Of a stretch of DNA of 12,930 bases, positions 1-12,930 are shown piece by piece (positions within the stretch are counted from its first letter, which is position 1; every line of letters starts with the position of its first letter). Origin of the DNA: a virus. Lineage: Duplodnaviria > Heunggongvirae > Uroviricota > Caudoviricetes. Below the pieces are notes generated by a model, which was given only the letters and a program-made list of their open reading frames with translations, was not told the origin of the DNA and ran no database searches. Both the position numbers and the translations under genes were made by a program. Location: the IMG/VR virus record IMGVR_UViG_2675903661_000019, positions 1 through 12,930 of that record; one strand, written 5' to 3'.

Positions 1-173
1 TGTCAGTTATCATCTTCGGTTACGGTTATCGGCAGAACGCCCTGCCGCTGACAAGAGCTTATTTGCCTGACCAATCTACTCCACATGATAGATAACTATC
101 ATTTATAACATTTCATTGATTAGTCTTTATTTTTCATTGCGTTACAAATAACACCCCAGTCAAAAACAGCGAA

Positions 174-197
174 ATTAACTACACCATTAACTACACC
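174..197. repeat. tandem direct repeat 2 x ATTAACTACACC
   Basis: Perfect 12-bp tandem duplication at 174-185 and 186-197. Confidence 0.6.
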
Positions 198-203
198 GTT
201 TCA

Positions 204-231
204 CGAACAATATCGAACAACCACGAACAAA
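204..231. repeat. three helically phased GAACAA repeats, second copy of the capsid-leader motif
   Basis: GAACAA at 205, 215, 225 (10-bp spacing); 17-bp identity with 7618-7634; preceded by a tandem 12-mer at 174-197. Confidence 0.6.
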
Positions 232-291
232 GATCAACACGCTTTAACCGTTATCATTTTCCGGCTATCCGTTATGAAGCTGGTGGATGTT

Positions 292-319
292 CCCCGATAT
301 GGGGATCCCCATAACGGGG
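292..319. repeat. 28-bp near-perfect palindrome
   Basis: CCCCGATATGGGGATCCCCATAACGGGG, centred on GGATCC, followed by a T7 run at 329-335. Confidence 0.5.
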
Positions 320-580
320 CTACCTGGCTTTTTTTCCGGTTAACCTTTAATCAGGCTGGTGGGCTTTACCTGTTTTGTAGGAGTGGTCATTCTGCCCGAC
401 CGCGCATTTTTGCGCTATCGGGCATATCAAACAGTTACCTCGCCGACTTCCTCAAATTGAGGTTTCCGAAAATATCAGCGGGTTAGCGATTAAGCTGACG
501 AGTAATTAAACTGCGAAAATTTCGTAGTTTGTGAATATATTCCGGCCTGCTGGTTAACAGTCCTCAGATGTGAGGGATGT

Positions 581-626
581 AGCCAGCGCAATTTTGCGCT
601 TTGCTTTAATCTCAGTAAGTTACCGC
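581..626. repeat. 46-bp direct repeat, copy 1 (contains GCGCAATTTTGCGCT hairpin motif)
   Basis: AGCCAGCGCAATTTTGCGCTTTGCTTTAATCTCAGTAAGTTACCGC; 45/46 identical to 717-762. Confidence 0.7.
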
Positions 627-716
627 GCCAATTTCCGCAGTCTGTGTAAATTGGGAAGAATCAACGGGTTAGGCCTTAATCATCTGCGTAAACATAAGTA
701 ATCATAATGATCATTC

Positions 717-762
717 AGCCAGCGCAATTTTGCGCTTTGCTTTAATCTCAGTGAGTTACCGC
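717..762. repeat. 46-bp direct repeat, copy 2 (overlaps 3' end of the 93-aa ORF)
   Basis: AGCCAGCGCAATTTTGCGCTTTGCTTTAATCTCAGTGAGTTACCGC; a third, shorter copy of the GCGCA-N5-TGCGCT core is at 402-416. Confidence 0.7.
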
Positions 763-1037
763 CGCAACCGTTCCGGCTTCTTCCAGTGGTACGTGATTTT
801 CTCCTTCTCCCGATACATCTCCACGCGGCGACGGTATGTCAGCAACTCAAGGACTCTGGTTCGTATGTTGCGCATATCCACGCCGTTAAGCTCAATACCA
901 TCACGGCGCATCACCTCAGCAACAACACGCGCATAATTTTCGGCTGTCACGCTGTCCGGCTGCGTGGTCTGTTCGTCAGCCTGCTGGCTGATTCCAGAGA
1001 CGCGGCGGATTAATCGCAGTATTTCGGCTTCTGTCAT
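756..1037 (-). CDS. hypothetical protein (93 aa) immediately downstream of large terminase
   Basis: Minus-strand ORF; ATG at 1037 lies 14 nt after the terL stop with GAGG about 9 nt upstream; basic C-terminus; last codons overlap the 46-bp direct repeat copy at 717-762. No family recognised. Confidence 0.45.
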   Translation of the reverse strand: MTEAEILRLIRRVSGISQQADEQTTQPDSVTAENYARVVAEVMRRDGIELNGVDMRNIRTRVLELLTYRRRVEMYREKEKITYHWKKPERLRR

Positions 1038-1050
1038 GCTGCTGACCTCA

Positions 1051-2712
1051 TTACACCCCGCTAAATTCTTCCAGTTTCTGGCGGTGGCTGTCGCTTATAT
1101 CAAAAGCAAAATCCTCATGCTCTGCCTGGAATGTACCAAACGCCATCAGCGCCGCTACGCTCGGGTCTATCTTGTTCGGTGATTTTTTCTTGTTCGGCTT
1201 GATATTGGCGTTCGCGTCACTCTGCATCACGACGTTACTCATCGACCAGGACAACACCGGATCGCCACGATGCACAATCACCCTGCGGTTAACAAAAACT
1301 TCGAACGATTTCGCCGCCGGACTGAATCTGAGGTAGGTTTGCGGGAACGGCTCCACCTCAAAACCAGCCCCCTGTAATTGCGTCCTGAGATGCGTGGCGT
1401 TCCACGTATCAAAGCCCACCAGCCTGATATTAAATTTCTCCGCATCCTGCATGATGTCATCTCTGATCCGGTCGTAATCAATGCAGTCACCTGGCGTTGT
1501 GCGTATCCAGCCCGCTTTAGCCCACTGGCGATAGACAGCGCGGTTTTTATTGGCGGGGTTCTGTAGCTGGAACTCCGGCAGATAATGACGGGAAACCAGC
1601 ATGATATTTTTACCGACCGGAAAGGCATAGCACACGCTGGAAATATCGCTGGTTGATGATAAGTCCAGCCCCGCGTAACACTCCTGCCCGTGTAAATCTT
1701 CCTCCGTGAACGTTCCGGCACACTCAGCCCATGCGCCGTTACCCATCCACGGGGTAGCCCCCTGGCACCAGATATTAAATCGCTTTGTCATCATCTCCAC
1801 CCATTGCGACGGAATACCCCGCGCTTTCTGGATGGTTGAGGCCAGTTTTTCACGATCCACGGAAACATCGATGTTAGGGTTAGCCTTTATCCACATCGCC
1901 GGATCATCAACCTCGTTTTCGTCGTCCAGCTCGTAAATCAGCACAAAAATTGAATCGTTGACCTCTTCGCCGTCCAGGATCTGGCAGCAATAATCATAGT
2001 GCTGTTTACAGGTTGAAACGACGTTACTGCCCGATGTGGTAATGGCAAATAACAGCCCTTCGGGACGTGCGCCCATCCCCAGCTCAAGCGCGGAATAAAC
2101 GCCGTTATCGGGGTGTAGGTGGTATTCGTCCACGATGGAAAGGCTGGGGTTTGTTCCCTCGATGGTTGCCGCTTTTGCTGCCAGCGGCTTTAACAGGCTG
2201 TTGCTTTTCGGGTGCATCACCTTGTGGGCCTGAATATTCACCCGCCTGCGTAACGGTCGGGATAAAAGGCACATCTGACGCGCATCATCAAAAACGATCC
2301 GCGCCTGGTCACGGCTCACCGCTGCGGTGTAAATATCCTGCTGCCCGTTCTCCATAATCAGAAACCAGTTAGCCAGAATCGCGGCGGTCGTGGATTTCGC
2401 ATTTTTGCGCGGCACTTCGATAAAGGCGCTCGTGTATTTGCGCCGTCCGGTGGCCTTAACCTTAAAGCCGAGGATGCACGCAAAGGCGAACTGCTGCCAC
2501 GGCTCCAGCTCAATGGGTCTGCCACGCATCGGCCCTTTTACGTGCGGGCACACCCTGGAAAAGGCAATAAACCGCTCCACAACCTCACGATCGAACGTGT
2601 AAAGGGGGCTTTCAAGGTCCGAAAAGTACCGTTTAACGGCCTGTTTCAGCCGTTTACAGGCCGGAATTTTGCCCGTTTTTACGTCTTCTGCGTACTTATT
2701 CCAGGCGGTCAA
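1051..2712 (-). CDS. terL: terminase large subunit (HK97-like, Terminase_1 type)
   Basis: 553-aa ORF; deviant Walker A-like PRKNAKST and Walker B-like LSIVDEYH near the N-terminus, long C-terminal nuclease-size region; apparent TTG start at 2712 with AGAGGA about 5 nt upstream; overlaps terS 3' end by 17 nt. Confidence 0.85.
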   Translation of the reverse strand: MTAWNKYAEDVKTGKIPACKRLKQAVKRYFSDLESPLYTFDREVVERFIAFSRVCPHVKGPMRGRPIELEPWQQFAFACILGFKVKATGRRKYTSAFIEVPRKNAKSTTAAILANWFLIMENGQQDIYTAAVSRDQARIVFDDARQMCLLSRPLRRRVNIQAHKVMHPKSNSLLKPLAAKAATIEGTNPSLSIVDEYHLHPDNGVYSALELGMGARPEGLLFAITTSGSNVVSTCKQHYDYCCQILDGEEVNDSIFVLIYELDDENEVDDPAMWIKANPNIDVSVDREKLASTIQKARGIPSQWVEMMTKRFNIWCQGATPWMGNGAWAECAGTFTEEDLHGQECYAGLDLSSTSDISSVCYAFPVGKNIMLVSRHYLPEFQLQNPANKNRAVYRQWAKAGWIRTTPGDCIDYDRIRDDIMQDAEKFNIRLVGFDTWNATHLRTQLQGAGFEVEPFPQTYLRFSPAAKSFEVFVNRRVIVHRGDPVLSWSMSNVVMQSDANANIKPNKKKSPNKIDPSVAALMAFGTFQAEHEDFAFDISDSHRQKLEEFSGV

Positions 2713-3052
2713 GCTCGTCCTCTTCTTCTGTTTCCGGTGGATTTTTACGGCGGCTTATCGGGTCAAAACCGAGCAAGGAGGCCATTTTTATCATCACTCT
2801 TTCAGCGTCGGATTTTGCGCTTAATGCGGGGTTTCTGCTCTCGCCGCCCTGACTGTTAACAATGATGAACCCGCGCGCCGCAAGGTCTGCAACGGCTTTC
2901 CGGTAAATGGAGTAGTTGACACAATACAGTTCCAGATTGCTCCAGTCGGCGGGGGTCAGGTCTCCCCGTTCCGCAAGCTGCCGCGATTTTTCCCGCCACT
3001 GCTTCACGGCGATATCATCCAGGTAGGCGGGGGCTTTCGGTGGTCTTGCCAT
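2696..3052 (-). CDS. terS: terminase small subunit (P27-like)
   Basis: 118-aa ORF directly upstream of and overlapping terL; N-terminal MARPPKAP and acidic C-terminal tail typical of P27-family small terminases paired with HNH and HK97-type TerL. Confidence 0.75.
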   Translation of the reverse strand: MARPPKAPAYLDDIAVKQWREKSRQLAERGDLTPADWSNLELYCVNYSIYRKAVADLAARGFIIVNSQGGESRNPALSAKSDAERVMIKMASLLGFDPISRRKNPPETEEEDELDRLE

Positions 3053-3120
3053 GCTTATTTTTTCGCCAGATTATTTTTCAAAAAATTCCCGTGCATAAAA
3101 ATTTGAGGAGGCGTTCGGTT

Positions 3121-3170
3121 CTGGGCGGGGTCGGGTTCGTCCTGAAAACTCCCCCCACCCCGTCCGGCTG
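3121..3170. other. candidate cos site region between HNH and terS
   Basis: GC-rich imperfect dyad GGGCGGGGTCGGG ... CCCCCCACCCCG inside the 289-bp non-coding gap between HNH stop (3342) and terS start (3052), the usual cos position in HNH-dependent cos-type HK97-like modules. Confidence 0.3.
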
Positions 3171-3341
3171 CCTCATCAGCGATTGCGGAAACATTCCATA
3201 ACCTCGCGGTCACGGTCGTTTAATCGCGTCGCTGTGATGCGTTCTGCGCGTCCTGATGCTTTATCTTTATGCCCTGTTTCCTGTGCCTTCCATGCGTCAC
3301 GCTGCCTTATAAGTCCACGGATAAGGCGGTTTTGTTCCCGC

Positions 3342-3782
3342 TCATTCATCAGCGCCATACATCCAGTTATTGCGGTTAGCGGCCCGTTCTTCCTCCTCAC
3401 GGAATCCACCCGCAGCACGCTTGTTTTTTGTGGACGGATCAAGCCATTTCGTTTTCTGGTTATGACACGCCTGGCACAATGGCTGATGATTCCACTCAGG
3501 CCAGAAGAGAACATCATTACCGCCATCGATTGGGATAATGTGATCCACCACCACGGCGGGCGTGTATATTCCTTTTTCCAGGCAATGCGCACATAACGGG
3601 TTTTTACTCAGATACATGGCGCGGTATTTCTCCCACTGCCTCGTATACCCTCGCTCCCTGCTGCTGCCTCTCCGGCTGTCCTGCTGCTGGCGTGCGCTGC
3701 GTCTGTGCTCCTCACACTTGCCGGACTTCACGCGCCTGTTGCAGCCTGGTTCTGTACATCGTCTTAATGGTTGCCACGGCAT
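3342..3782 (-). CDS. HNH endonuclease (packaging-associated)
   Basis: 146-aa ORF with Cys-rich N-terminus (CTEPGC, CEEH) and HNH core VVDHIIPIDGGND...LCQACHNQKT; sits upstream of terS as in cos-type HK97-like packaging modules; start overlaps stop of the upstream connector gene. Confidence 0.85.
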   Translation of the reverse strand: MPWQPLRRCTEPGCNRRVKSGKCEEHRRSARQQQDSRRGSSRERGYTRQWEKYRAMYLSKNPLCAHCLEKGIYTPAVVVDHIIPIDGGNDVLFWPEWNHQPLCQACHNQKTKWLDPSTKNKRAAGGFREEEERAANRNNWMYGADE

Positions 3783-4078
3783 CAGTACACCCCCACATCA
3801 CGGTAAGCCGTCCAGAGTGCGCCAATCGTCATGGGTACGTGTGTTTTTGCGTTATCCGCGACAATCTGGCGATTCTCATACAGGTGAGCGATAAACATCA
3901 TGCAGCCAATCTTTATGGCTGGCGTGAACTCCAGCCCGTCATCAAAGCGCCTGCCTATGTGTATCTGGCACGCCTCAAGCGATGCGGCAATGTATCCGCT
4001 GATTAACTGGTCTTCCTCGTCGCCATCGATGCGGCAATGGAGTTTCACTTCTTCCAGGGTGATAAGTTCTTCTGTCAT
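3782..4078 (-). CDS. head-tail connector protein, gp6-like
   Basis: 98-aa ORF beginning MTEELITLEEVKLHCRIDGDEEDQLISGYIAAS, the characteristic N-terminal signature of gp6-like head-tail connector proteins; ATGA start/stop overlap with the upstream gene. Confidence 0.75.
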   Translation of the reverse strand: MTEELITLEEVKLHCRIDGDEEDQLISGYIAASLEACQIHIGRRFDDGLEFTPAIKIGCMMFIAHLYENRQIVADNAKTHVPMTIGALWTAYRDVGVY

Positions 4079-4413
4079 TTTTCCGCGCCCTCACGACAAA
4101 GAATTTCAAGGCGTGTCCTGGCGGCATCCGGCAGCGGCTGCCCGATGATATTCAGTACACGCCCCGCCAGCGGCCCCGTATTGACCTTTATCCGGCTGGT
4201 GGCGTTGATGTCCTTCCGGTACCGTATCCAGATCCTTACGGTACCAATCGCCAGCTCTGCACCCGATGAAATGGCCTCCTTGCTGCTGACCATGTTCACG
4301 CTTGCCCAGAGTGTGTGACCGTCCTCCCACGTTTCGAGTATTTCGCCCGTCATGGCTCTGGTCTGTTTCAGGGTCTGAATCGTTACCCTGTCACGCAGTC
4401 GCCCTATGTTCAT
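4075..4413 (-). CDS. head closure / head-tail joining protein (gp7 or SPP1 gp16-like)
   Basis: ORF extends to 4455, but the internal ATG at 4413 gives MNIGRLRDRVTIQ..., the typical N-terminus for this family, and overlaps the portal stop as ATGA. IRYRKDI and LEILCREG motifs fit head-closure proteins. Start choice is uncertain. Confidence 0.7.
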   Translation of the reverse strand: MNIGRLRDRVTIQTLKQTRAMTGEILETWEDGHTLWASVNMVSSKEAISSGAELAIGTVRIWIRYRKDINATSRIKVNTGPLAGRVLNIIGQPLPDAARTRLEILCREGAEK

Positions 4414-5621
4414 TCCGGTTTTTCTCCCTCGCTGATTTTTACTTCCTGTTTCCATACCTGGCTGAACTCATCACCACCATCACGCGGAGACAACCCTTCT
4501 CGTTCGCGGGCTTCGTTCGGGCACATAACACCGGATTTGATGCCTCGCTCATAGGTGGCAAAGCGTTCGCCAGGTGTGGCCCGTAACAGGTCCGCGCTGT
4601 CAAACTCCACCTGATACCGGATACCAGGTACAGGCGAGACCACCAGCAAGGCGTTTTTTATCTGCTGCTCAAAGTTCGCCAGCCACGGGCGCATCGTCAT
4701 GGTGAGAAATGCGCGGCTTGCCTCGCTGAAATTGCTGTAGGTGCTGTTGCTGTATTCCTGCAGAAAAATCGGCGAGACGTTGAACATTCGGGCGATGTCT
4801 TCAATGGTGAAGCGACGGGAGGCCAGCCATTCGGCGTCCTGGTTACTCATGCCCAGCTGCTGGTAACTCATGCCCCCTTCAAGGATGGGCGTTTTTCCGG
4901 CGTTTCTGGCCCCTTTGTAGCGTTCCAGTGCGGCTAATGCCTGTTTGCCTTTCACGCCGTCCAGCCATTCGCCTGACGTGATAACCCCTGCCGCCATCAT
5001 GCCATCACGCATCACGCTCGCGCCGTGGCGTTGTTGGGCCAGCCCAAGCCCCAGCGATTCGCGGCAGATGGTTACAGGTGAGCGCCCCATAAAGCCGTCA
5101 TCCGTGGAGTAACGAAGGTGAAGTACTTCCCACGGTAAATAGTTGCGGGTGTTTCCGGTGTAGGCGTCAGTGATGCAATAGCGCCAGTTGTGTTCTCCTG
5201 TCTGCTCCACGTTCACCGACTGCGGCGGGTAAGGATGTAAAGCCGCCGGAAAACCATCACGCCCCCACTGAATCACCGCGTAAGCATTACCGTTTAACAG
5301 GCAGTGGCGGATCATCATTCGCTTAAACTGGTAGGGGGTTTGCCATGCGTTCGGGCGCTCGTTGAGGATATGATCGACCGGATGAGAATCAAGCCACTCG
5401 CGGGCCTCCTTCCCCTTCTCATTGCGTACCAGGTACAGGTAGCATGGCATAGTAGCCACCGCCTCAGAGATGACCGTGACGGCGTTCATGACGGCGGGGA
5501 GTGATTCCGCTGTCCCCGATGATACGTACTCACCCGCCCCCGTGTTCGATGTGCCAGCCAGCGCCATAAATTCATCAAGCGTCATGCTGCGCTGCTCTTT
5601 TTTTCTTCTGAAAGGCCACAT
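4410..5621 (-). CDS. portal protein (HK97 family)
   Basis: 403-aa ORF, size and sequence character of HK97-type portals; ATG at 5621 is 1 nt after the protease stop and preceded by GGGGGTG; lies between protease and connector genes. Confidence 0.85.
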   Translation of the reverse strand: MWPFRRKKEQRSMTLDEFMALAGTSNTGAGEYVSSGTAESLPAVMNAVTVISEAVATMPCYLYLVRNEKGKEAREWLDSHPVDHILNERPNAWQTPYQFKRMMIRHCLLNGNAYAVIQWGRDGFPAALHPYPPQSVNVEQTGEHNWRYCITDAYTGNTRNYLPWEVLHLRYSTDDGFMGRSPVTICRESLGLGLAQQRHGASVMRDGMMAAGVITSGEWLDGVKGKQALAALERYKGARNAGKTPILEGGMSYQQLGMSNQDAEWLASRRFTIEDIARMFNVSPIFLQEYSNSTYSNFSEASRAFLTMTMRPWLANFEQQIKNALLVVSPVPGIRYQVEFDSADLLRATPGERFATYERGIKSGVMCPNEAREREGLSPRDGGDEFSQVWKQEVKISEGEKPE

Positions 5622-5622
5622 A

Positions 5623-6180
5623 TCACACCCCCGCTAAATCCGCCCACCAGCGGCGATTATCCGCACGCGGCATTTTTTCGGGGTGCTGCTCATACAGGGA
5701 ACGGCGGGCCAGCTCCACGCCGGAATCGGGGTAAGCCGGTACGGATGTAACGGTAATTTCGTACAGTTCCGCCACCAGCACGGTGCGCACGCATGGATCT
5801 GTTGTGGTATCCCATACATCCTTACGGGAACGAAAGCCAAAGCTCATGCCGGATATATCACCACGTTTAACCAGTTCGATAACGTCACGCCCTGTGCTGG
5901 TATCCGGTGGGGTAAGTTCAAAGCGTAACCCTGTGTCGTCCTCTTCCAGTTTCAGCGTGCCGGAACGGGTGCGCCCCAGTAACATGCTGTGGTCATGCTC
6001 ATACAGGCCGCGAACGTCATTACCCGCCGCAAGCCACTCAGTAAACGCCCCCCGCTGGAATTTTTCGTAAAACTCCCCCCATAACAGTTCCGAAAGGTTA
6101 TCCCAGCGAACAACGTAGCCTGTAAGCGTGTTGCTGGCGCTGGTGGTGATTTCCGATGACCGGATTTCCATACTCTTCAT
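5623..6180 (-). CDS. prohead maturation protease (HK97 gp4-like)
   Basis: ORF is open to 6294, but the ATG at 6180 has GGGTGA about 8 nt upstream and lies after the capsid stop. Protein carries LYEHDHSMLLGRT and GMSFGF motifs typical of HK97-family prohead proteases. Confidence 0.8.
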   Translation of the reverse strand: MKSMEIRSSEITTSASNTLTGYVVRWDNLSELLWGEFYEKFQRGAFTEWLAAGNDVRGLYEHDHSMLLGRTRSGTLKLEEDDTGLRFELTPPDTSTGRDVIELVKRGDISGMSFGFRSRKDVWDTTTDPCVRTVLVAELYEITVTSVPAYPDSGVELARRSLYEQHPEKMPRADNRRWWADLAGV

Positions 6181-6206
6181 AATTTTTTTCACCCATAAAA
6201 CACTAA

Positions 6207-6224
6207 AGGGGCTTTTTAGCCCCT
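6207..6224 (-). promoter_or_regulatory. GC-rich hairpin between capsid and protease genes (possible attenuator)
   Basis: Minus strand AGGGGC-TAAAAA-GCCCCT followed by an interrupted T-rich tract (TTAGTGTTTTA), in the 55-nt gap between capsid stop and protease start. Confidence 0.4.
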
Positions 6225-6235
6225 TCTGTATGCTG

Positions 6236-7393
6236 TTAATCGTCGTCCTGTGGCAGTTCCAGAATCTTGATCGCGTTCGAATCCACCACGCCACCGCCTA
6301 AATATTTTTGCGTGAAAATTTTGATGAATCCTGGTTCTGTCAGGTTGTCCGGTCTGGTGCGAACACCTGTTTCGTGATCAACGATGTAGTAACCGCGTTT
6401 AAAGTCGCCCAGGGCAATAACGTTATCCGGCATAAACTCCAGATATTCGACCGGAAGGCCCAGCAACGTATCAGGATCACCCGCCTGTAAACGGTCACGC
6501 CAGATGTAATCACCGTTCGCGTTCTTCACCTTCTGGAGTTTTGCCGCCGTCGTGGAGTTAACCACCCAGACCGCGTTTTTGCGGTATTTTTTACGTAATG
6601 CAAATTTCAGGTCGATCAGCGGGTCCGCAGATGTCCACGCCAGAGATTCGGAAGGTTTAATTACCTGCAACGTACCAAAATCACGCTCTTTGTCGTTCTT
6701 CTCTGCACGGGGTACGGATAAAAAGCCTTTTGCTTTTTTGTCACCGTCGCCCACAACCAGATCGCTTTCTTCGGTTTCCGTGAAGGTGTCGCCAATCTCG
6801 CCCGTCAGCCATGAAAGGATGTCCACATCGGAAAAATCCACGATTTCCTGCGTGGTGCGCGGGTACGCATAGACCGGATACAGCTTAATGCTCACCTCGT
6901 TAATCTGCGGGGTGCTGGTCTGTTCGCGTGCCTTACCCTCTTCACCGTGGTTAACGGTCGCACCGCCAGCGGAAACAAGCTGCTTAAACTCGTTGCTGCT
7001 GATTTTCTTCACGGTACAGATGCGGCGCATGGTGGATTCATCCGTCAGCATTCGCATGATTTCGGTGTTCAGTTCGGGGATAACGGTATAACCACCATCA
7101 GCGGGAACGCCTGTACTCAATGCGCGGGTTTCACCTGTCAGAATGTAGTGACGTAGTTCGGCGGGGTCAGTGGTCTGGCTGTTTTTGCCTGGTTTACTGC
7201 GCTCTTCGTCAGCAACGGCCTCAAGGCGGGAGATGTCTTTATCGAGTGATTCAGCTTTAGCGCGTAATTCGTCAAATTTTGCGCCCTCAGCATCGTTAAG
7301 ACTGCGGTTTTCTTTTTCCGCGTTCTCCAGCATGTCGCGCATCTGATTTTTAATGGCGGTTTTCTGCTGGCGTAATTCGATTATTCTCGGCAT
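6236..7393 (-). CDS. major capsid protein (HK97 fold) with N-terminal coiled-coil delta/scaffold-like region
   Basis: 385-aa ORF; charged, coiled-coil-like first ~70 aa (EKENRSLNDAEGAKFDELRAKAESLDKDISRLEAVADEE) followed by a capsid-size body; ATG at 7393. Confidence 0.85.
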   Translation of the reverse strand: MPRIIELRQQKTAIKNQMRDMLENAEKENRSLNDAEGAKFDELRAKAESLDKDISRLEAVADEERSKPGKNSQTTDPAELRHYILTGETRALSTGVPADGGYTVIPELNTEIMRMLTDESTMRRICTVKKISSNEFKQLVSAGGATVNHGEEGKAREQTSTPQINEVSIKLYPVYAYPRTTQEIVDFSDVDILSWLTGEIGDTFTETEESDLVVGDGDKKAKGFLSVPRAEKNDKERDFGTLQVIKPSESLAWTSADPLIDLKFALRKKYRKNAVWVVNSTTAAKLQKVKNANGDYIWRDRLQAGDPDTLLGLPVEYLEFMPDNVIALGDFKRGYYIVDHETGVRTRPDNLTEPGFIKIFTQKYLGGGVVDSNAIKILELPQDDD

Positions 7394-7430
7394 AAAAAAA
7401 GTCCTGGGGTTAAGTAAGGAACTCCAGGAC
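7394..7430 (-). promoter_or_regulatory. hairpin plus U7 tract immediately upstream of the capsid start codon, sequestering the SD
   Basis: Minus strand reads GTCCTGG-(16 nt loop)-CCAGGAC-TTTTTTT-ATG; the only SD-like element (AGGA) lies in the 3' arm of the stem. Confidence 0.5.
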
Positions 7431-7483
7431 GCGGCAAAAACTCAACCGTTTTTCATAAGGGAATCAGCAATCGCACCGATCGT

Positions 7484-7531
7484 TTTCCCGCCTGGTAATG
7501 AATATTGGCGAGCACATTAACAGGCGGGAAA
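7484..7531. promoter_or_regulatory. 11-bp perfect inverted repeat with 26-bp spacer in capsid operon leader
   Basis: TTTCCCGCCTG at 7484-7494 and CAGGCGGGAAA at 7521-7531. Confidence 0.45.
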
Positions 7532-7603
7532 GTGGCCCCAGCGTCCTGGCACCACGGGCGAGAATAATCATGATTCAGTTCGGGTAAAATATGCCGATCC
7601 GCT

Positions 7604-7634
7604 CAGTGAACAACGTGGAACAACCACGAACAAA
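7604..7634. repeat. three helically phased GAACAA repeats upstream of capsid operon
   Basis: GAACAA at 7608, 7618, 7628 (exact 10-bp spacing); 17-bp core GAACAACCACGAACAAA (7618-7634) is identical to 215-231. Confidence 0.6.
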
Positions 7635-7640
7635 TAATTT

Positions 7641-7674
7641 ACAAAAAATAACAAAAAGCCGGATTGCTCCGGCT
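7641..7674 (-). terminator. intrinsic terminator after the 74-aa gene
   Basis: On the minus strand: stem AGCCGGA / TCCGGCT with 4-nt loop, followed by TTTTTGTTATTTTTT; lies 10 nt after the stop at 7685. Confidence 0.75.
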
Positions 7675-7684
7675 GTATGGGTGC

Positions 7685-7909
7685 TCAGTCCCTGATCCCT
7701 TTCAGAAATTCTATCAATGCATCTGTCTGTTCAGGATTTACCGCCAGCATTTCACCGGATAGCGCGCAACGAACAAAACCATGATGATCCTTTTCAATCA
7801 GCGCCCCCGTTTCCAGGAATGCGCGGTAATCAGTGATGTTCATCGTCTCCATGTTGTCAGCATGGTATTTATCACGCTGTTTTAATATCTCATCAAATTT
7901 CGTCGGCAT
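7685..7909 (-). CDS. hypothetical acidic protein (74 aa)
   Basis: ORF is open to 7987, but the ATG at 7909 has GAGGA about 7 nt upstream (MPTKFDEILKQ...). Stop at 7685 is followed by an intrinsic terminator. No family recognised. Confidence 0.5.
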   Translation of the reverse strand: MPTKFDEILKQRDKYHADNMETMNITDYRAFLETGALIEKDHHGFVRCALSGEMLAVNPEQTDALIEFLKGIRD

Positions 7910-8003
7910 TGTTTTTTCCTCTGTTGTGTCTGTTTGTTTCAGATAGTAACTATGCCGGACCGTGACGAAAAGCCAGTAGTGCGCCATACCATTTCAAATG
8001 ACG

Positions 8004-8028
8004 CAAAAAAAGCCGGATTGCTCCGGCT
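8004..8028 (-). terminator. intrinsic terminator after the 82-aa gene (near-identical copy of the 7641-7674 terminator)
   Basis: Same AGCCGGA-GCAA-TCCGGCT hairpin followed by a T7 run on the minus strand; about 24 bp identical to the other copy. Confidence 0.75.
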
Positions 8029-8050
8029 GCGTGGTGTGGTTCTGATATTC

Positions 8051-8299
8051 CTACTCAGCTAATTTGCTCAGCCCCATGTCTGCATAAGTGCGATTTACTG
8101 CATTTCTCAGGTCTGCGTAGTTCTCCGTTGGCGGCTCCGGTGGCCTCTGTGCCTTCCTGGAACATTCCAGCCGTCGCATCGTAACCTGATGCCGTTCCTT
8201 GTCTATCTCCACCAGTTGCATGACTTCACCCCATCGCGCCGACGCCCTCCGGTAAAAGCCTTTTGCCTCGAGTTCCTCCGCTATGCGGTCATGTACCAT
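8051..8299 (-). CDS. hypothetical protein (82 aa)
   Basis: ATG at 8299 is preceded by GAGGGGG, which overlaps the SSB stop codon (TGAGGGGGTGACGATG); ORF ends at 8051 and is followed by an intrinsic terminator. The longer track ORF (to 8419) would overlap SSB by 110 nt. No family recognised. Confidence 0.5.
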   Translation of the reverse strand: MVHDRIAEELEAKGFYRRASARWGEVMQLVEIDKERHQVTMRRLECSRKAQRPPEPPTENYADLRNAVNRTYADMGLSKLAE

Positions 8300-8309
8300 C
8301 GTCACCCCC

Positions 8310-8720
8310 TCAGAACGGAATACCGTCACCGTAAGGGTCATCGCCTCCCGCTGGTGGCTGATTACCCTGTGTGCCTGTGGTTTTGCGTCTGTTCCCGCCA
8401 GGACGTGCCGCACGGGCACTGATTACGCTGTCTGCAATAACCTGATAACCCTGCCGCGTTTCCCCGTTCTGTCCGGTCCACTGGCTGACCTGCATCGTGC
8501 CGGATACGCTGGCAACGTCGCCTTTTTGATGTTTAGCCAGGAAGTCGGCCTGCTTACCAAATGCGATGACCGATAGCCATAACGTAGCCTGCCCATCCTG
8601 CGCCTGACTACATGGCAACGATACCGCCATACGTGCCAGCGTCATTGGTGTGCCCTTGCTGGTCTGTTTTACCTGCGGGTCGTCCACCAGCCGCCCGTAA
8701 GCTGCTATCTGTGCTGTCAT
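8310..8720 (-). CDS. ssb: single-stranded DNA-binding protein (SSB-like)
   Basis: 136-aa ORF; OB-fold-like core alignable by eye to E. coli SSB (conserved Trp in SQWTGQNG matching RKWTDQSG), Gly/Pro-rich linker and C-terminal acidic tip DDPYGDGIPF resembling the SSB DDDIPF tail; ATGA overlap with the upstream gene. Confidence 0.75.
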   Translation of the reverse strand: MTAQIAAYGRLVDDPQVKQTSKGTPMTLARMAVSLPCSQAQDGQATLWLSVIAFGKQADFLAKHQKGDVASVSGTMQVSQWTGQNGETRQGYQVIADSVISARAARPGGNRRKTTGTQGNQPPAGGDDPYGDGIPF

Positions 8721-9031
8721 GATTCCACCTCTCCGGTTTTAACGTTGATGGTTGTTACCTGTTCCGCTTCGGCAATCTCCCGTTCTGTCAGCGTGGCAAA
8801 GTTTGCCGCCGCCGTGGTCATGAATGCGCTTATCAGGTCGGGATGTTCCTTCGCGTATCCTTCCCGCGTGTGGCGGTCTATCGTTCTGATTGCCACCTTT
8901 AAGGTGTGCTCAGTCATGTCTAACGCTTTATATTTTGGCTCTGTTCTGTCTCTGCGAATTTTGGTCATTTGTCGCCCCTGATTCATGTTTTCGGCTGGCA
9001 TGTTTGTTAAGTGATTTTGATGTATGCGCAT
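8717..9031 (-). CDS. hypothetical protein (104 aa)
   Basis: ATG at 9031 preceded by GAGGGGG about 9 nt upstream; first gene downstream of the iteron region; translationally coupled to SSB. No family recognised. Confidence 0.5.
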   Translation of the reverse strand: MRIHQNHLTNMPAENMNQGRQMTKIRRDRTEPKYKALDMTEHTLKVAIRTIDRHTREGYAKEHPDLISAFMTTAAANFATLTEREIAEAEQVTTINVKTGEVES

Positions 9032-9078
9032 TTATTTTCACCCCCTCGTTTAAAAAGTTTTTAGTTGTGCCTCCCCCC

Positions 9079-9302
9079 CCTCTACCCATCTACCCGAATG
9101 CTCATCATGTCAGTAATGGCGCGGCTTTCAGCGGGTAGATAGCTTTTTGGGCTCCTCTACCTGCCGTCTACCCTGCTACCTGAAACTGATAAAATCAGGT
9201 AGAAGAGGTAGAGAGCTTTTATTAGCCTTCTACCTGGCCCTCTACCCACTTATCATGTTGAATAATATGTATTTATTTCATTCAGGTAGATGGGGTAGAG
9301 GG
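9079..9302. repeat. iteron array, candidate origin of replication
   Basis: About 12 copies of CCTCTACCC / GGGTAGAGG-type motifs (core TCTACC / GGTAGA) in both orientations within ~220 bp, interspersed with AT-rich stretches (9250-9283), directly downstream of the primase stop at 9316. Confidence 0.7.
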
Positions 9303-9315
9303 CTTTTACAAAAAA

Positions 9316-11070
9316 TTATAAAAACGCGTCGCAATCGTCTGTTGTAATTGCGTTGGTCTGCGTTACTCCCTTAACTTTTCGCGTAATATATTCATGCCCG
9401 TAAACTTTCGCCGCTGGCTTCATGGCCTTGCTGAACTCAGCCACGTTTAGCGGTTTGCTCCTGCCTGCGTATGCCATAAACGCCAGATAGACGCGGTAAA
9501 GGCTGTTCCTGGTCGTGTACTTCACTGAATCGCCACCGCCCCCCATCATCAGGCCGCGCGCTTCCTCCAGAAAATTCAGGAACTGGCAAAACTCAATAAC
9601 CGGATCCGTCTGTTGCTTTATTGCCAGTGCTTCATCACCGTCACGCTGTTCCAGTAGTAAAGCCCGTGCCTTCTCAGGGTCGGTAAAGTTCGCCAGCAAG
9701 CGGCGGATAATAACGGGGATTTCAGCCGCAATCTTTTCCGGTAGTTCCCTGTCTTTTTCGGCCTCACTGACGATATTGTCGAAACGGAAAATCACGCGAC
9801 GACGTGCCACACCTCCGGCCCGTTCGGTGAATATCATCGGGTTATTGTTGGTCGCCAGCACCACCGCCCTGATTACAGCCGTGAAACGCTTTTCGTATTT
9901 CGGGTTAATTTCCACGGGGTCACCGCCCGTGATTTTCTTGATGCCCGTTCCTTCGCCTGTATATTTCGGCTGGTCAGCCAGGACGATAAGACGACTCCCG
10001 ACAACCTGCGCACGTCCACCAGCATCATCAAGCGATGTCATTTCAGCGCTTACCGTGTTCTGTTTCCCTGCCAGAAGGCTGGCTATGTGTGTGAATGTAC
10101 TTTTACCGCTCCCGCCGTCTCCGGTGGCCTCAATAAACATCTGCCAGTCGTACCGGTTCGCCATAATCATGTACAGCGCGGCACATATACGCATCATCTT
10201 GCGCGGGTCTTTTCCGGCTGCGTGCTCAAGCCATTTATGAAAGTTTGGCGCGTTATCGCGGATGTTCTCCCCTGGTGCTGGTGGCGTGTACTCAATACCG
10301 TTGTGCGTGGTGATCCAGTTCTCCGGCGTGTGCGGGGAAAATTCCCCCGTTTTCAGGTCAAGCGCACCATTGGCAAACGGCAGCAAATCGCCGGACGGCT
10401 CGCCCATTGGTTCGGCAATAACTTTTAACGCTTCCACGGCGTTATTGATTACGCGCTTGCTGAAAGTGGCCCTGTGCTCTGAATAGATCGCCACCATTTC
10501 GCGGCTAAGTTCCATTGTACTGACCGGACACCATACCCCGCCGCGCCATACGTGGACGATTTCACTTTCAGGATGTACGCAAATGCCATCAAAGCGCCCG
10601 GCAAGCAGCTGCGCGCGCTCACTGTCCGCCATCTGCGAAAGTTGTGCCTTTTGCTTTACCGGAAGCTCAATGACCAGACCATCAGAAAGATTCTGGCGCT
10701 CACGGGCCAGATATTCGCGCCAGTTCTCCACCTTCTGAACGTGCATTCCCTCAGGGTAAAAATTTGCATCCTGTACGCCTGCCGCCGCCAGTTTCTGACC
10801 AATCGCCTTGATCATTACTGGCTCAAGATGTCCGGCCCTGAATATGCGTACTGATTTTCTGCCTTCCGGCACAATTTGCAGCTTATCCAGTTCGGATAAC
10901 TGCTGCTCCCCAAGCCACACAGGAGGCTCATTATCTCCGGCCATACGCGCGTCATGTTCCTGCCATTGTTTTGCGTGTGACCAGGCATCACTACCCGCAA
11001 AAATAATGACTTCTGTTTCTTTGTGTTTTATGCCGCGTGACTGCTGTTTTACGTTCGGTGCCAGTTTCAT
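9316..11070 (-). CDS. primase/helicase, P4-alpha / D5-like (satellite Pri-Rep type)
   Basis: 584-aa ORF with central P-loop NTPase Walker A GDGGSGKST and Walker B-like LIVLAD, N-terminal primase-like region; ATGA overlap with the upstream 99-aa gene; iteron-rich AT-containing region begins right at its stop. Confidence 0.8.
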   Translation of the reverse strand: MKLAPNVKQQSRGIKHKETEVIIFAGSDAWSHAKQWQEHDARMAGDNEPPVWLGEQQLSELDKLQIVPEGRKSVRIFRAGHLEPVMIKAIGQKLAAAGVQDANFYPEGMHVQKVENWREYLARERQNLSDGLVIELPVKQKAQLSQMADSERAQLLAGRFDGICVHPESEIVHVWRGGVWCPVSTMELSREMVAIYSEHRATFSKRVINNAVEALKVIAEPMGEPSGDLLPFANGALDLKTGEFSPHTPENWITTHNGIEYTPPAPGENIRDNAPNFHKWLEHAAGKDPRKMMRICAALYMIMANRYDWQMFIEATGDGGSGKSTFTHIASLLAGKQNTVSAEMTSLDDAGGRAQVVGSRLIVLADQPKYTGEGTGIKKITGGDPVEINPKYEKRFTAVIRAVVLATNNNPMIFTERAGGVARRRVIFRFDNIVSEAEKDRELPEKIAAEIPVIIRRLLANFTDPEKARALLLEQRDGDEALAIKQQTDPVIEFCQFLNFLEEARGLMMGGGGDSVKYTTRNSLYRVYLAFMAYAGRSKPLNVAEFSKAMKPAAKVYGHEYITRKVKGVTQTNAITTDDCDAFL

Positions 11071-11366
11071 TTTTTACCCCTGAATCCGTTAATCATGGTT
11101 TTCAGCTTCTGGATGTTTTCCCGTGCTCTGGCGTTGCTGGTGGGCACGTTATGCGGCGCGGTCTGTACCAGAGAAAAATCACGCCGGAACTGATAAACAG
11201 GCATCACGCAATCATATTCGTAACCTTCACGGCGGTAAGTTACGCACCGTCCCGCCACACCCTTAATCATTACCGTGCCGCCGTACTGGTCGCGGTAAAT
11301 ATCACCGCGCGTAAATTTAGGGTGAGTGTTGCCACTGGCAGTTAAGCCAGAATATTTAAGTTTCAT
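11067..11366 (-). CDS. hypothetical protein (99 aa)
   Basis: ATG at 11366 with GGAGA about 9 nt upstream; stop overlaps the primase start; position resembles small early genes that precede primase in P4-like elements. No family recognised. Confidence 0.5.
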   Translation of the reverse strand: MKLKYSGLTASGNTHPKFTRGDIYRDQYGGTVMIKGVAGRCVTYRREGYEYDCVMPVYQFRRDFSLVQTAPHNVPTSNARARENIQKLKTMINGFRGKK

Positions 11367-11371
11367 TATTT

Positions 11372-11599
11372 TTATTCTCCGGTGTGGGGCGCTTTATTAT
11401 TTTCGATAATATCCATCGCCTTATCCAGTTCATCAATAACAGGCGATAGTAATGTCTGAATGGCTGCAAACATTAATGACGAAGATTCTTCGCCAGATTC
11501 CGGCGCTTCAATTAATTTGCCTAACAACGCATTCATTTCGCGCGCTTTAATTAATGCGTTTTCAGAATGAATAAGAACATCAAAGGGTATTTTATGCAT
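11372..11599 (-). CDS. hypothetical acidic protein (75 aa)
   Basis: ATG at 11599 preceded by AGGGGGTGA; acidic, helical-looking sequence; first confidently coding gene of the leftward early operon. Confidence 0.5.
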   Translation of the reverse strand: MHKIPFDVLIHSENALIKAREMNALLGKLIEAPESGEESSSLMFAAIQTLLSPVIDELDKAMDIIENNKAPHTGE

Positions 11600-12056
11600 G
11601 ACTCACCCCCTGGCGAATACGGGCGACAAAAATCAGATGTGTGTGCGGCAGCTGGGCGCGTGCTTCGCCTTCTGTTGCTGCCGTGACGGTAAAGAGTGAT
11701 CTTTGTTTTTCCTGGCACTGCATAAAGCGCCAGACAAAGTAAGGGCGTGCGGATACAGCCATGTGAAAGGCTCCCAAAGTGAAATTAAGGAGTCTCGCTA
11801 CTACGCTGCTAAACGGGGTGGCGAGACGTAACAGGGTTAGCAGACTGGCACTTTGGGAACCAGCGAGCGCAAAGGCTCCCCCGTTACGCCCCGCCATAAT
11901 GCGGGTATGGGTAGGCTTACGGACACAAAAAAACCGCATATCGGAATGTAAGCGGCTGTCCGCCAAAGTATTCAGGCTGCTAAACCCGGTCGCCATGTGG
12001 GCGACGGGGGAAGCATACAGCCCCGTTATAATTTTTTGCAAGCGGTTTTTACGCAT
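11592..12056 (-). CDS. candidate ORF (154 aa, very basic), doubtful; may instead be structured leader RNA
   Basis: ATG at 12056 with CAGGGG 8 nt upstream; 3' end overlaps the next start as CATGCATAA. Its last ~50 codons and the downstream junction are duplicated in the preceding segment (12049-12200). Composition (Ala/Arg/Leu/Ser-rich, few acidic residues) is atypical. Confidence 0.25.
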   Translation of the reverse strand: MRKNRLQKIITGLYASPVAHMATGFSSLNTLADSRLHSDMRFFCVRKPTHTRIMAGRNGGAFALAGSQSASLLTLLRLATPFSSVVARLLNFTLGAFHMAVSARPYFVWRFMQCQEKQRSLFTVTAATEGEARAQLPHTHLIFVARIRQGVSHA

Positions 12057-12330
12057 GATGTGACCCCTGACGAATACGGGCGGCAAATACAGCAACACAA
12101 CCAGACGGGCAACGGCTACGCGCTTCGCGTTCCGTCCAGGCGGTTACGTGGATGATTTGAGATTCTCCGGCACTCAGGGCCAGAAAACGCCAGATGTATT
12201 TATTCAGGTTGTGCGAGTCCCGCCCTTGCGGGTGTGTGATATGATTTCTCATAGCTACCTCGATACTTTCGCTATCGTTGGTGGTCAGAGGCTGCGAAAG
12301 GACGGCAATCCTTTTCAGCCTCGTTTGCAT

Positions 12331-12430
12331 TGAGTGATAAACACTCAGCTGGATTCCAGTATAATCACTAAGTGGAATCCACTTCAAGCGTTTTGTTTTG
12401 GTCTTTTTCGTGTATACTGGATTCCAGTAA
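12331..12430. promoter_or_regulatory. divergent overlapping promoters with three TGGAWTCCA palindromic operators
   Basis: TGGATTCCA at 12350-12358 and 12418-12426, TGGAATCCA at 12373-12381; plus-strand -10 TATAAT at 12360-12365 and TATACT at 12413-12418; minus-strand TTGAAG, 18 nt spacer, TATACT (rc of 12358-12387); palindrome GAGTG-ATAAA-CACTC at 12332-12346. Confidence 0.6.
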
Positions 12431-12448
12431 TCACAAAGGGAACCAGAA

Positions 12449-12628
12449 ATGGAAAGAGACCATATCAATAACAAATCACAGAAATTACAGGCTCGCGCCC
12501 CGCATGAAGTTGTTGAGGCTATGGAGCAAGTAAAAGAAACAGGCGAGAGCACTGCGCAATTTATCGTTACAGCCATGCGAGGCGAGATCAAACGCCGCCA
12601 GCGCCGTAAGGCCAAAGAATCAGAATAA
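12449..12628 (+). CDS. small ribbon-helix-helix-like DNA-binding regulator (59 aa)
   Basis: Not in the ORF track (below 60 aa). ATG at 12449 with AAGGGA upstream, TAA at 12626-12628. KLQARAP (beta strand), HEVVEAMEQVKETGESTAQFIVTAM (helix, G-x-S turn, helix) then a basic tail fits the RHH pattern; transcribed divergently from an operator-rich region. Confidence 0.55.
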   Translation: MERDHINNKSQKLQARAPHEVVEAMEQVKETGESTAQFIVTAMRGEIKRRQRRKAKESE

Positions 12629-12685
12629 TCACTATCAGCGCCGTGGTGTGAGGTACTACGGCGCATTGCTTTACAGGGCAGTACC

Positions 12686-12913
12686 ATGACCAACAACACA
12701 CTATCACCAATACAAGACACGCAAACGCAAGATGATGAAATCATCCGGCAAAGGCAGTCAGAAGCCTGCGCCAGAGTTGAGGAAGAACTAACCAGAACAA
12801 AAATACCACCACCAGCGCCGCGCTTAATGCCACCAGAAAAATTTGCCCTTGAAGATTTTGTCGAGAAATACCCACGGCGGTTAAAAGCCACTAAAAACCG
12901 ACCGCCTGGCTGA
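12686..12913 (+). CDS. hypothetical protein (75 aa)
   Basis: ORF downstream of the RHH gene on the same strand; weak SD (AGGG); Pro-rich centre. No family recognised. Confidence 0.4.
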   Translation: MTNNTLSPIQDTQTQDDEIIRQRQSEACARVEEELTRTKIPPPAPRLMPPEKFALEDFVEKYPRRLKATKNRPPG

Positions 12914-12930
12914 TAGCCTTGTCCACCAGC

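Follow-up and report, generated by a model that had tools for sequence, protein, structure and literature searches.

Control of Gram-negative satellites by AlpA has so far been described genetically: the protein is required for the induction of phage-inducible chromosomal islands (PICIs) and of their capsid-forming counterparts (cf-PICIs), it activates itself, and it is sometimes called an excisionase. AlpA of EcCICFT073 activates its own promoter and not Pint, and its overexpression induces excision and replication (PMC6092414); relatives of AlpA act as excisionases (PMC10803314; PMC10111431). Helper-embedded PICIs (HE-PICIs) carry a doubled motif, tgTGTATTGCantgTGTATTGCa, 81 ± 2 and 132 ± 2 bp from the center of attP, and its binder was left open (PMC10111431). 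Among other mobile elements and regulators, P2 Cox (PMC3936717) and RdfS/BldC (PMC11963761) are small winged-helix proteins that polymerize along DNA and act both at att sites and at promoters. Here we describe two arrays of phased hexamers in a window of 12,930 nucleotides (the whole stretch of DNA that was analyzed, positions 1 to 12,930 of IMG/VR record IMGVR_UViG_2675903661_000019). By its gene content, the window is a cf-PICI resembling EcCIEDL933 and Sp7, inserted upstream of clpS and with its genes on the minus strand. One array lies at the end of the island, in an arm of the attachment site, and the other lies upstream of the capsid gene. The switch that governs capsid production matters, since it is with capsids of their own making that cf-PICIs spread across species.

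The two arrays share a 17-mer, GAACAACCACGAACAAA, that matches the plus strand exactly at 215-231 and 7618-7634 and at no other position of the window, even when three mismatches are allowed. GAACAA hexamers start at 205, 215, and 225 in the left array and at 7608, 7618, and 7628 in the internal one, in exact 10-bp phase and in one orientation, so that an initial annotation of this DNA, which had described a 17-bp repeat with three phased GAACAA units at two loci, was right about both coordinates and orientation. It had also judged such a repeat very unlikely by chance in 13 kb, and shuffles agree: 0.04 matches are expected, and none of 200 shuffles contained two or more. When the window was scanned for three hexamers in phase with at least 14 of 18 matches, these were the only two arrays returned, against a base-shuffle mean of 0.15. 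Read along the direction of transcription, on the minus strand, the hexamer is TTGTTC, the form used from here on.

We infer that the hexamers are head-to-tail binding sites for the island's own Xis-like AlpA, which would serve as an excision cofactor at the att arms and as an activator at the capsid promoter; we regard this reading as having about an even chance of being correct. The arrays keep their positions, their phase, and their units in related islands, and they vary independently of integrase type, origin iterons, and terminase genes. It is the identity of the binder, and activation of the promoter through its binding, that we would assign to AlpA by prediction. As a class, the arrays would belong to a known type, the site arrays of recombination directionality factors (RDFs) and regulators: they are direct repeats of three to four units at 10-bp phase, those on the arms adjoin putative integrase arm-type sites, and relatives have a small winged-helix gene beside int. 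Arrays also stand upstream of a -35/-10-like pair before the capsid gene and in the region upstream of alpA, which is reported to be AlpA activated, and regulation at both may run through these sites.

Related islands place the arrays consistently. The islands compared, all with an Sp7-type integrase and AlpA, were one at clpS (L001), Sakai Sp7 at phoQ (L002), a Shigella island (L004), an island at yifB (L016), and the classical PICI EcCICFT073 (L208). Phased TTGTTC-like arrays occupy exactly four places in them: each of the two arms, the intergenic region between int and alpA, and the region upstream of the capsid gene, the last in capsid-forming islands alone. The check that the initial annotation had suggested, a motif search across related genomes, finds the array on both arms and before the capsid gene in homologous islands. 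The array on the integrase-proximal arm has the same orientation as that on the distal arm and again abuts a doubled 12-mer, lying between the 12-mer and the core. When eight arms from four islands are aligned, four units line up at 10-bp phase, TGT being invariant, and the doubled 12-mer comes next. Between int and alpA, the array is inverted and has up to six to seven units (it is degenerate in L001), and the region upstream of alpA contains hexamer arrays and no doubled motif. In EcCICFT073, a second set of phased units, of ACACAA type, is found directly upstream of alpA (5447-5495), where it overlaps the only promoter-like site that the scan calls there (TTGCCA-17-CACAAT).

In the window, the left array lies about 100 to 130 bp inside the island end, because positions 1-102 are the chromosomal region upstream of clpS; identity with K-12 stops at about 102, within the att core block. 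That block is repeated at the integrase-side junction of L001, which sits between clpS and cspD. The tandem 12-mer that the initial annotation had placed next to the left array is indeed there, across a gap of 6-7 bp. These 12-mers, GGTGTAGTTAAT, are confined to the two arms in every Sp7-type island examined, giving four half-sites, and their nearest edges are about 79 and about 130 bp from the center of the core.

Along the minus strand, the region upstream of the capsid gene runs from a terminator-like hairpin (7657-7674) through a box, TTTTGTAAATTAT, and the three hexamers (7633-7608) to a -35-like and a -10-like element, a leader of about 160 nt, and the capsid ATG at 7393, which is 215-240 bp downstream of the array; read on this strand, the terminator and the capsid start lie as the initial annotation had placed them. 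Seven diverged lineages share the register of this array, and its distance to the -35/-10-like pair downstream is fixed. Lineages also agree in TATnnT and in the TT of TTTAC, and at the aligned position in L016 the promoter scan calls TTTACA-16-TATGTT. In the box, 11 of 13 positions are invariant across islands of Escherichia coli, Rosenbergiella, Citrobacter, and Erwinia, regardless of hexamer type, and the box is absent from the att arms. The leader contains a hairpin (7402-7430) that, with a run of seven U residues, overlaps the AGGA ribosome-binding site directly before the capsid ATG and resembles either a terminator or a block to translation within the leader.

Conservation extends well beyond the lineage of the window. 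Using a retrieval that was independent of the hexamers, anchored on the box and on conserved leader sequence, we obtained 64 non-redundant capsid-upstream regions. Information content in these regions peaks at T (+17, +27, and +37) and at C (+19, +29, and +39), an exact 10-bp period, with either T or A between the two conserved bases. At 19 nt past the last hexamer, the TT of the -35-like TTTAC is invariant in the 64 regions, and box positions 9-10, which were not part of the search pattern, are likewise nearly invariant. In capsid-anchored loci of Rosenbergiella, Citrobacter, and Erwinia, the box recurs and three hexamers come after it without a change of register, but these are of type nnnTAC. 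On each arm of the Citrobacter and Erwinia islands, two TAC-type hexamers adjoin another doubled motif, GGTATCCTATAGGTATCCT. Erwinia has a set of four [G/C]TACTT / GTACTT units at exact 20-bp spacing upstream of an excisionase-like HTH_17 gene (L007, 4672-4740), and their type matches that of the arms and of the capsid-upstream site. Arm-to-capsid covariation among TAC-class islands is nevertheless mixed, as it holds for Erwinia and Citrobacter and fails in fis-type islands, where the capsid-upstream hexamers are of the TAC class and the arm hexamers are mixed. The AlpA-like protein of fis-type islands resembles that of a helper-embedded island (L017), whose arrays are TTGTTC.

If AlpA is the binder, the island would work as follows. 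AlpA, a small Xis-like winged-helix protein encoded beside int, would, once expressed, bind the arrays as monomers placed head to tail, one per helical turn. At both att arms it would act as the excision cofactor that shapes the intasome. On the integrase-proximal arm it would sit between the integrase arm sites and the core, bending the DNA and contacting integrase, by analogy with lambda Xis at X1 beside P2; on the distal arm, its array would abut the integrase sites from outside. At the capsid promoter, AlpA bound at about -54 to -79 would recruit or stabilize RNA polymerase and turn on the packaging genes. Since one protein and one DNA word would be used at the arms and at the capsid promoter, we propose that excision is coupled to capsid production. 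A broader version, in which AlpA is a true two-function protein and a single hexamer code links excision at both arms, its own synthesis at int-alpA, and capsid transcription, with the T/A position (TTC versus TAC) defining specificity classes that keep co-resident satellites independent, is more speculative, and we would sooner bet against it than for it.

The initial annotation had seen shared sites for one protein, marking either two co-regulated promoters or a promoter plus an end structure, and had named a late activator, an integrase site, and an accessory-factor arm site as candidates. Its promoter plus end structure fits an att-arm module present on both arms together with a putative -35/-10-like pair before the capsid gene, and its accessory-factor arm site is consistent with the left copy being part of that module; of its readings, these have the best support. 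The two promoters are not supported, as the promoter scan found no promoter-like site near the left copy, which sits at the far end of the island, and neither are the integrase and helper options, for reasons given below.

A different binder is the alternative that survives best, although we consider it unlikely. It could be a host factor, such as a response regulator of the OmpR/PhoB type or a nucleoid protein, or an island product, either the PerC-family activator encoded two genes upstream or the small protein encoded at 7685-7987. Across the 64 regions only T4 and C6 are strongly conserved in each hexamer, which suggests loose specificity, and the missing arm-to-capsid match in fis-type islands also counts in favor of another binder. 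A single host factor is argued against by hexamers whose type differs between island lineages. PerC is an unlikely binder, as it does not track the arrays: L016 has all four of them and no PerC, and EcCICFT073 has PerC but no capsid-site array. The small protein is encoded directly upstream of the box in several diverged cf-PICI lineages, and its C-terminal residues are conserved, but the classical PICI has arm and alpA arrays even though no such protein is annotated in it.

Less probable still is that the hexamers are arm-type sites for the N-terminal domain of the integrase, with the internal copy letting integrase control the capsid promoter or be titrated by it. Both arms have three direct repeats spaced by 10 bp whose distance from the core is fixed, which recalls P'1-P'3 of lambda, and all integrases compared carry an Arm-DNA-bind_3 domain, just as all small regulators beside int are Pfam Phage_AlpA proteins. 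A fixed core distance on both arms, however, is as true of the doubled 12-mer as of the hexamers, and it is the doubled motif that follows the arm domain. It is GGTGTAGTTAAT in L001, L002, L016, and L208; TGTGTGGTCAG in L399, with 62-68% arm-domain identity to the GGTGTAGTTAAT group; and TGTGTATTGC in L017, where the arm domain is 47-51% identical. Between L001 and L399, the AlpA cores are identical at 62 of 63 residues and the TTGTTC arrays are alike on both arms and upstream of the capsid gene, while the integrase arm domains are 62% identical and the doubled motifs differ. L017, with the third integrase type, has no TTGTTC arrays on its arms and keeps the capsid-upstream array; it also has an extra AlpA-family gene overlapping int and a second AlpA-like gene. 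Thus, the hexamers neither change with the arm domain nor stay confined to att, being found at the capsid promoter and at int-alpA as well, and the doubled motif, with four half-sites, already matches an integrase tetramer.

The simplest assignment would give the doubled motif to the integrase arm domain and the hexamers to AlpA, or to another factor that does not vary with integrase. The reverse is disfavored because an identical AlpA would need to have changed specificity while the diverged integrase domain kept its own. Linkage between AlpA and integrase nonetheless makes the two hard to separate: when IMG/VR was searched for recombinants, neither the 69 loci found with AlpA nor the 80 found with an integrase alignment departed from one int-alpA pairing, so these searches were uninformative. 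A PDB sequence search with AlpA returned only an uncharacterized AlpA-family entry, 8c3t.

It is very improbable that the two copies share no function and reflect duplication, gene conversion, common descent of a 10-bp unit, or chance. The copies have the spacer bases GTGG and CACG in common as well, as expected after copying, and the window's own lineage is shallow, so that conservation within it says little. Chance is opposed by the shuffle expectation given above, and copying by phased units that persist in deeply diverged lineages with unalignable flanks, their positions being fixed with respect to the doubled motif and the -35-like element.

The remaining candidates, helper-phage late activator sites, replication-origin iterons, and terminase (cos or pac) sites, would explain phased repeats in a helper-dependent satellite and an internal copy ahead of the packaging operon, but we give them hardly any weight and rejected each: filled, tail-less capsids are reportedly made by cf-PICIs when no helper phage is present, which also removes the helper late activator of the initial annotation; the origin-like iterons of the window are of TCTACC type, adjoin the primase gene, and do not vary with the arrays, L001 having the same arrays and different iterons; and the arrays are 2.5 and 4.5 kb from terS, which encodes the small subunit of terminase, with arm arrays kept in EcCICFT073, which has no terminase genes.

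Several points weigh against AlpA as the shared binder. The arrays are putative AlpA sites, with binding and expression there predicted from sequence, and both alpA and int are outside the window. Separation of AlpA from integrase depends on a few recombinants (L399 and L017), because the two genes are tightly linked in the sampled loci. EcCICFT073 has arrays on its arms and upstream of alpA and none before its late genes, and the int-alpA array faces the opposite way from the capsid-upstream array. The capsid promoter of the window is placed by homology, through L016 and the lineage alignment, since the scan of the window called nothing at 7380-7720, where the proposed site scores 8/12. The mixture in fis-type islands means that the arm-to-capsid match is not universal and that the T/A position may not be read. 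Finally, AlpA of the Vibrio PICMI appeared to act without changing transcription (PMC10803314).

Gene content and conservation identify the element itself. Pfam matches show a primase, capsid, protease, portal, connectors, HNH, TerS, and TerL, and no tail or lysis genes. The packaging operon reads capsid, prohead protease, portal, head completion, connector, HNH, TerS, and TerL (TerL at 1051-2712), and the minus strand encodes all substantial genes of the window. Sakai Sp7 and other annotated E. coli islands match the window with 92-97% DNA identity across 85-90% of its length, and Sp7-like islands correspond to the cf-PICI family typified by EcCIEDL933. The window stops short of int and alpA, which lie past its right end and are seen in L001, at the same clpS/cspD site. 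Coordinates of the features discussed are collected in Table 1.

Table 1. Features of the cf-PICI window, with positions counted from its first nucleotide.
Feature	Position	Strand	Remarks
att core identity block, atgata[g/a]ataactatcat	85-102	.	Island begins at about 103
Doubled 12-mer, GGTGTAGTTAAT x2	174-197	-	Putative integrase arm-type sites, integrase-distal arm
Arm array	205-240	-	TTGTTC x3 (205-230) and a degenerate fourth unit, GTGTTG (235-240), at 10-bp phase; putative AlpA (RDF) sites
HK97-type major capsid gene	6236-7393	-	First gene of the packaging operon; Pfam match; ATG at 7393
Structured capsid-operon leader	7394-7556	-	Fold z-score -4.35; 0/200 shuffles fold as well
Putative capsid-operon promoter	7561-7588	-	-35-like TTTACC (7588-7583), 16-nt spacer, -10-like TATTCT (7566-7561)
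Capsid-upstream array	7608-7633	-	TTGTTC x3, 10-bp phase; about -54 to -79 from the predicted transcription start; putative AlpA activator sites
Conserved box, TTTTGTAAATTAT	7634-7646	-	Directly upstream of the array
Intrinsic terminator-like hairpin	7657-7674	-	Ends the upstream (replication/accessory) transcription unit
Small open reading frame, function-unassigned protein (phrog_1957)	7685-7987	-	No Pfam match
D5-type primase gene	9316-11070	-	With SSB and PerC-family protein genes in the same set

Other repeats and structures were observed in and around these islands. Immediately downstream of the primase gene, at about 9040-9300, the iterons of the window surround an AT-rich stretch and comprise several TCTACC/GGTAGA units, some in each orientation, and L001 has CTGTTCACC iterons there. 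Further cf-PICIs have GCGGGTTAT/ATAACCCGC iterons near the integrase-distal end (L016, about 4980-5020; L017, about 5480-5700; L399, 18095-18130), with three per orientation around an AT-rich stretch in L017, and these look like a second origin type placed after terL. The noncoding stretch between the last gene and the att arm of the window (292-319, 581-631, and 717-767) contains a palindrome, CCCCGATATGGGGAT/ATCCCCATAACGGGG, as well as a 51-nt duplicate of 94% identity in which a terminator-like hairpin, AGCGCAATTTTGCGCT, is found. At 11814-11901, on the minus strand, is a full-length match to the Rfam C4 antisense RNA (RF01695; 71 bits versus a gathering score of 45), an immunity RNA of the P1/P7 type; it sits within an open reading frame at 11592-12098, in the zone where relatives encode Icd-like proteins. 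An IMG/VR scan for three TTGTTC units returned mostly unrelated repeat families that have no bearing on this island. Unrelated viral contigs (for instance L018, L020, L022, and L029, and also L026, L054, and L100) have recurrent TTGTTCC arrays of their own at 10-bp phase, such as tagttgttcccgTTGTTCCCAGTTGTTCCGAGTTGTTCcgggaacaac, which suggests similar phased-site systems in other elements.

In the literature searched, we found no AlpA operator and no such arrays for PICIs, and a motif search gave noise only. If AlpA binds as proposed, the master regulator of Gram-negative PICIs would have its first operator map in these arrays. As short, mutable targets at four places of an island, they make it directly testable whether AlpA is an excision factor, an activator, or both.

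Among known systems, the arms resemble those of lambda in one respect: the Xis sites X1, X1.5, and X2 are about three head-to-tail sites roughly one helical turn apart, beside the Int arm site P2 and between P2 and the core, and the island's arm arrays likewise lie directly beside putative integrase arm-type sites. Unlike the lambda sites, which occupy one arm only, the island arrays are found on both arms and in two regulatory regions, and to our knowledge the Xis sites of lambda are not known to activate a late promoter. Dual regulators of excision and transcription akin to P2 Cox include 186 Apl and P4 Vis. Cox itself offers a functional parallel, being a small Xis-like winged-helix protein that acts on arrays of short repeats as excision cofactor at attP and as transcription factor at promoters, activates the late promoter of a satellite, and forms filaments that wrap DNA (PMC3936717). 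It differs in belonging to a family separate from Pfam Phage_AlpA, and cox-boxes are 9-mers in at least six copies of mixed orientation, whereas the island arrays, known here from sequence, have three to four co-oriented units (up to six to seven at int-alpA) on both arms beside the doubled integrase motif.

The AlpA of Pseudomonas aeruginosa (PMC9371919) is like that of the islands only in name and in positive control of lysis or late genes. It is a Q-like antiterminator of at least 142 residues with a single GGGACG element between -35 and -10, and we rejected a comparable antitermination element here, where the array is upstream of the -35 element and relatives encode Phage_AlpA proteins of 62-74 residues downstream of int. 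The doubled motif, for its part, matches that of HE-PICIs in having two co-oriented copies of a tandem 11-12-mer at nearly the same distances (81/132 bp there and about 79/130 bp here) and departs from it in sequence, GGTGTAGTTAAT here, and in having a phased hexamer array alongside. A motif that had been called unique to HE-PICIs (PMC10111431) is thereby extended to other PICI integrase types with its geometry unchanged. RdfS of ICEMlSymR7A and BldC oligomerize on DNA, bind attP and promoters, and can bind with one monomer per turn (PMC11963761), much as we propose for AlpA, but RdfS has no recognizable consensus motif, whereas the island arrays present a clear hexamer in exact 10-bp phase.

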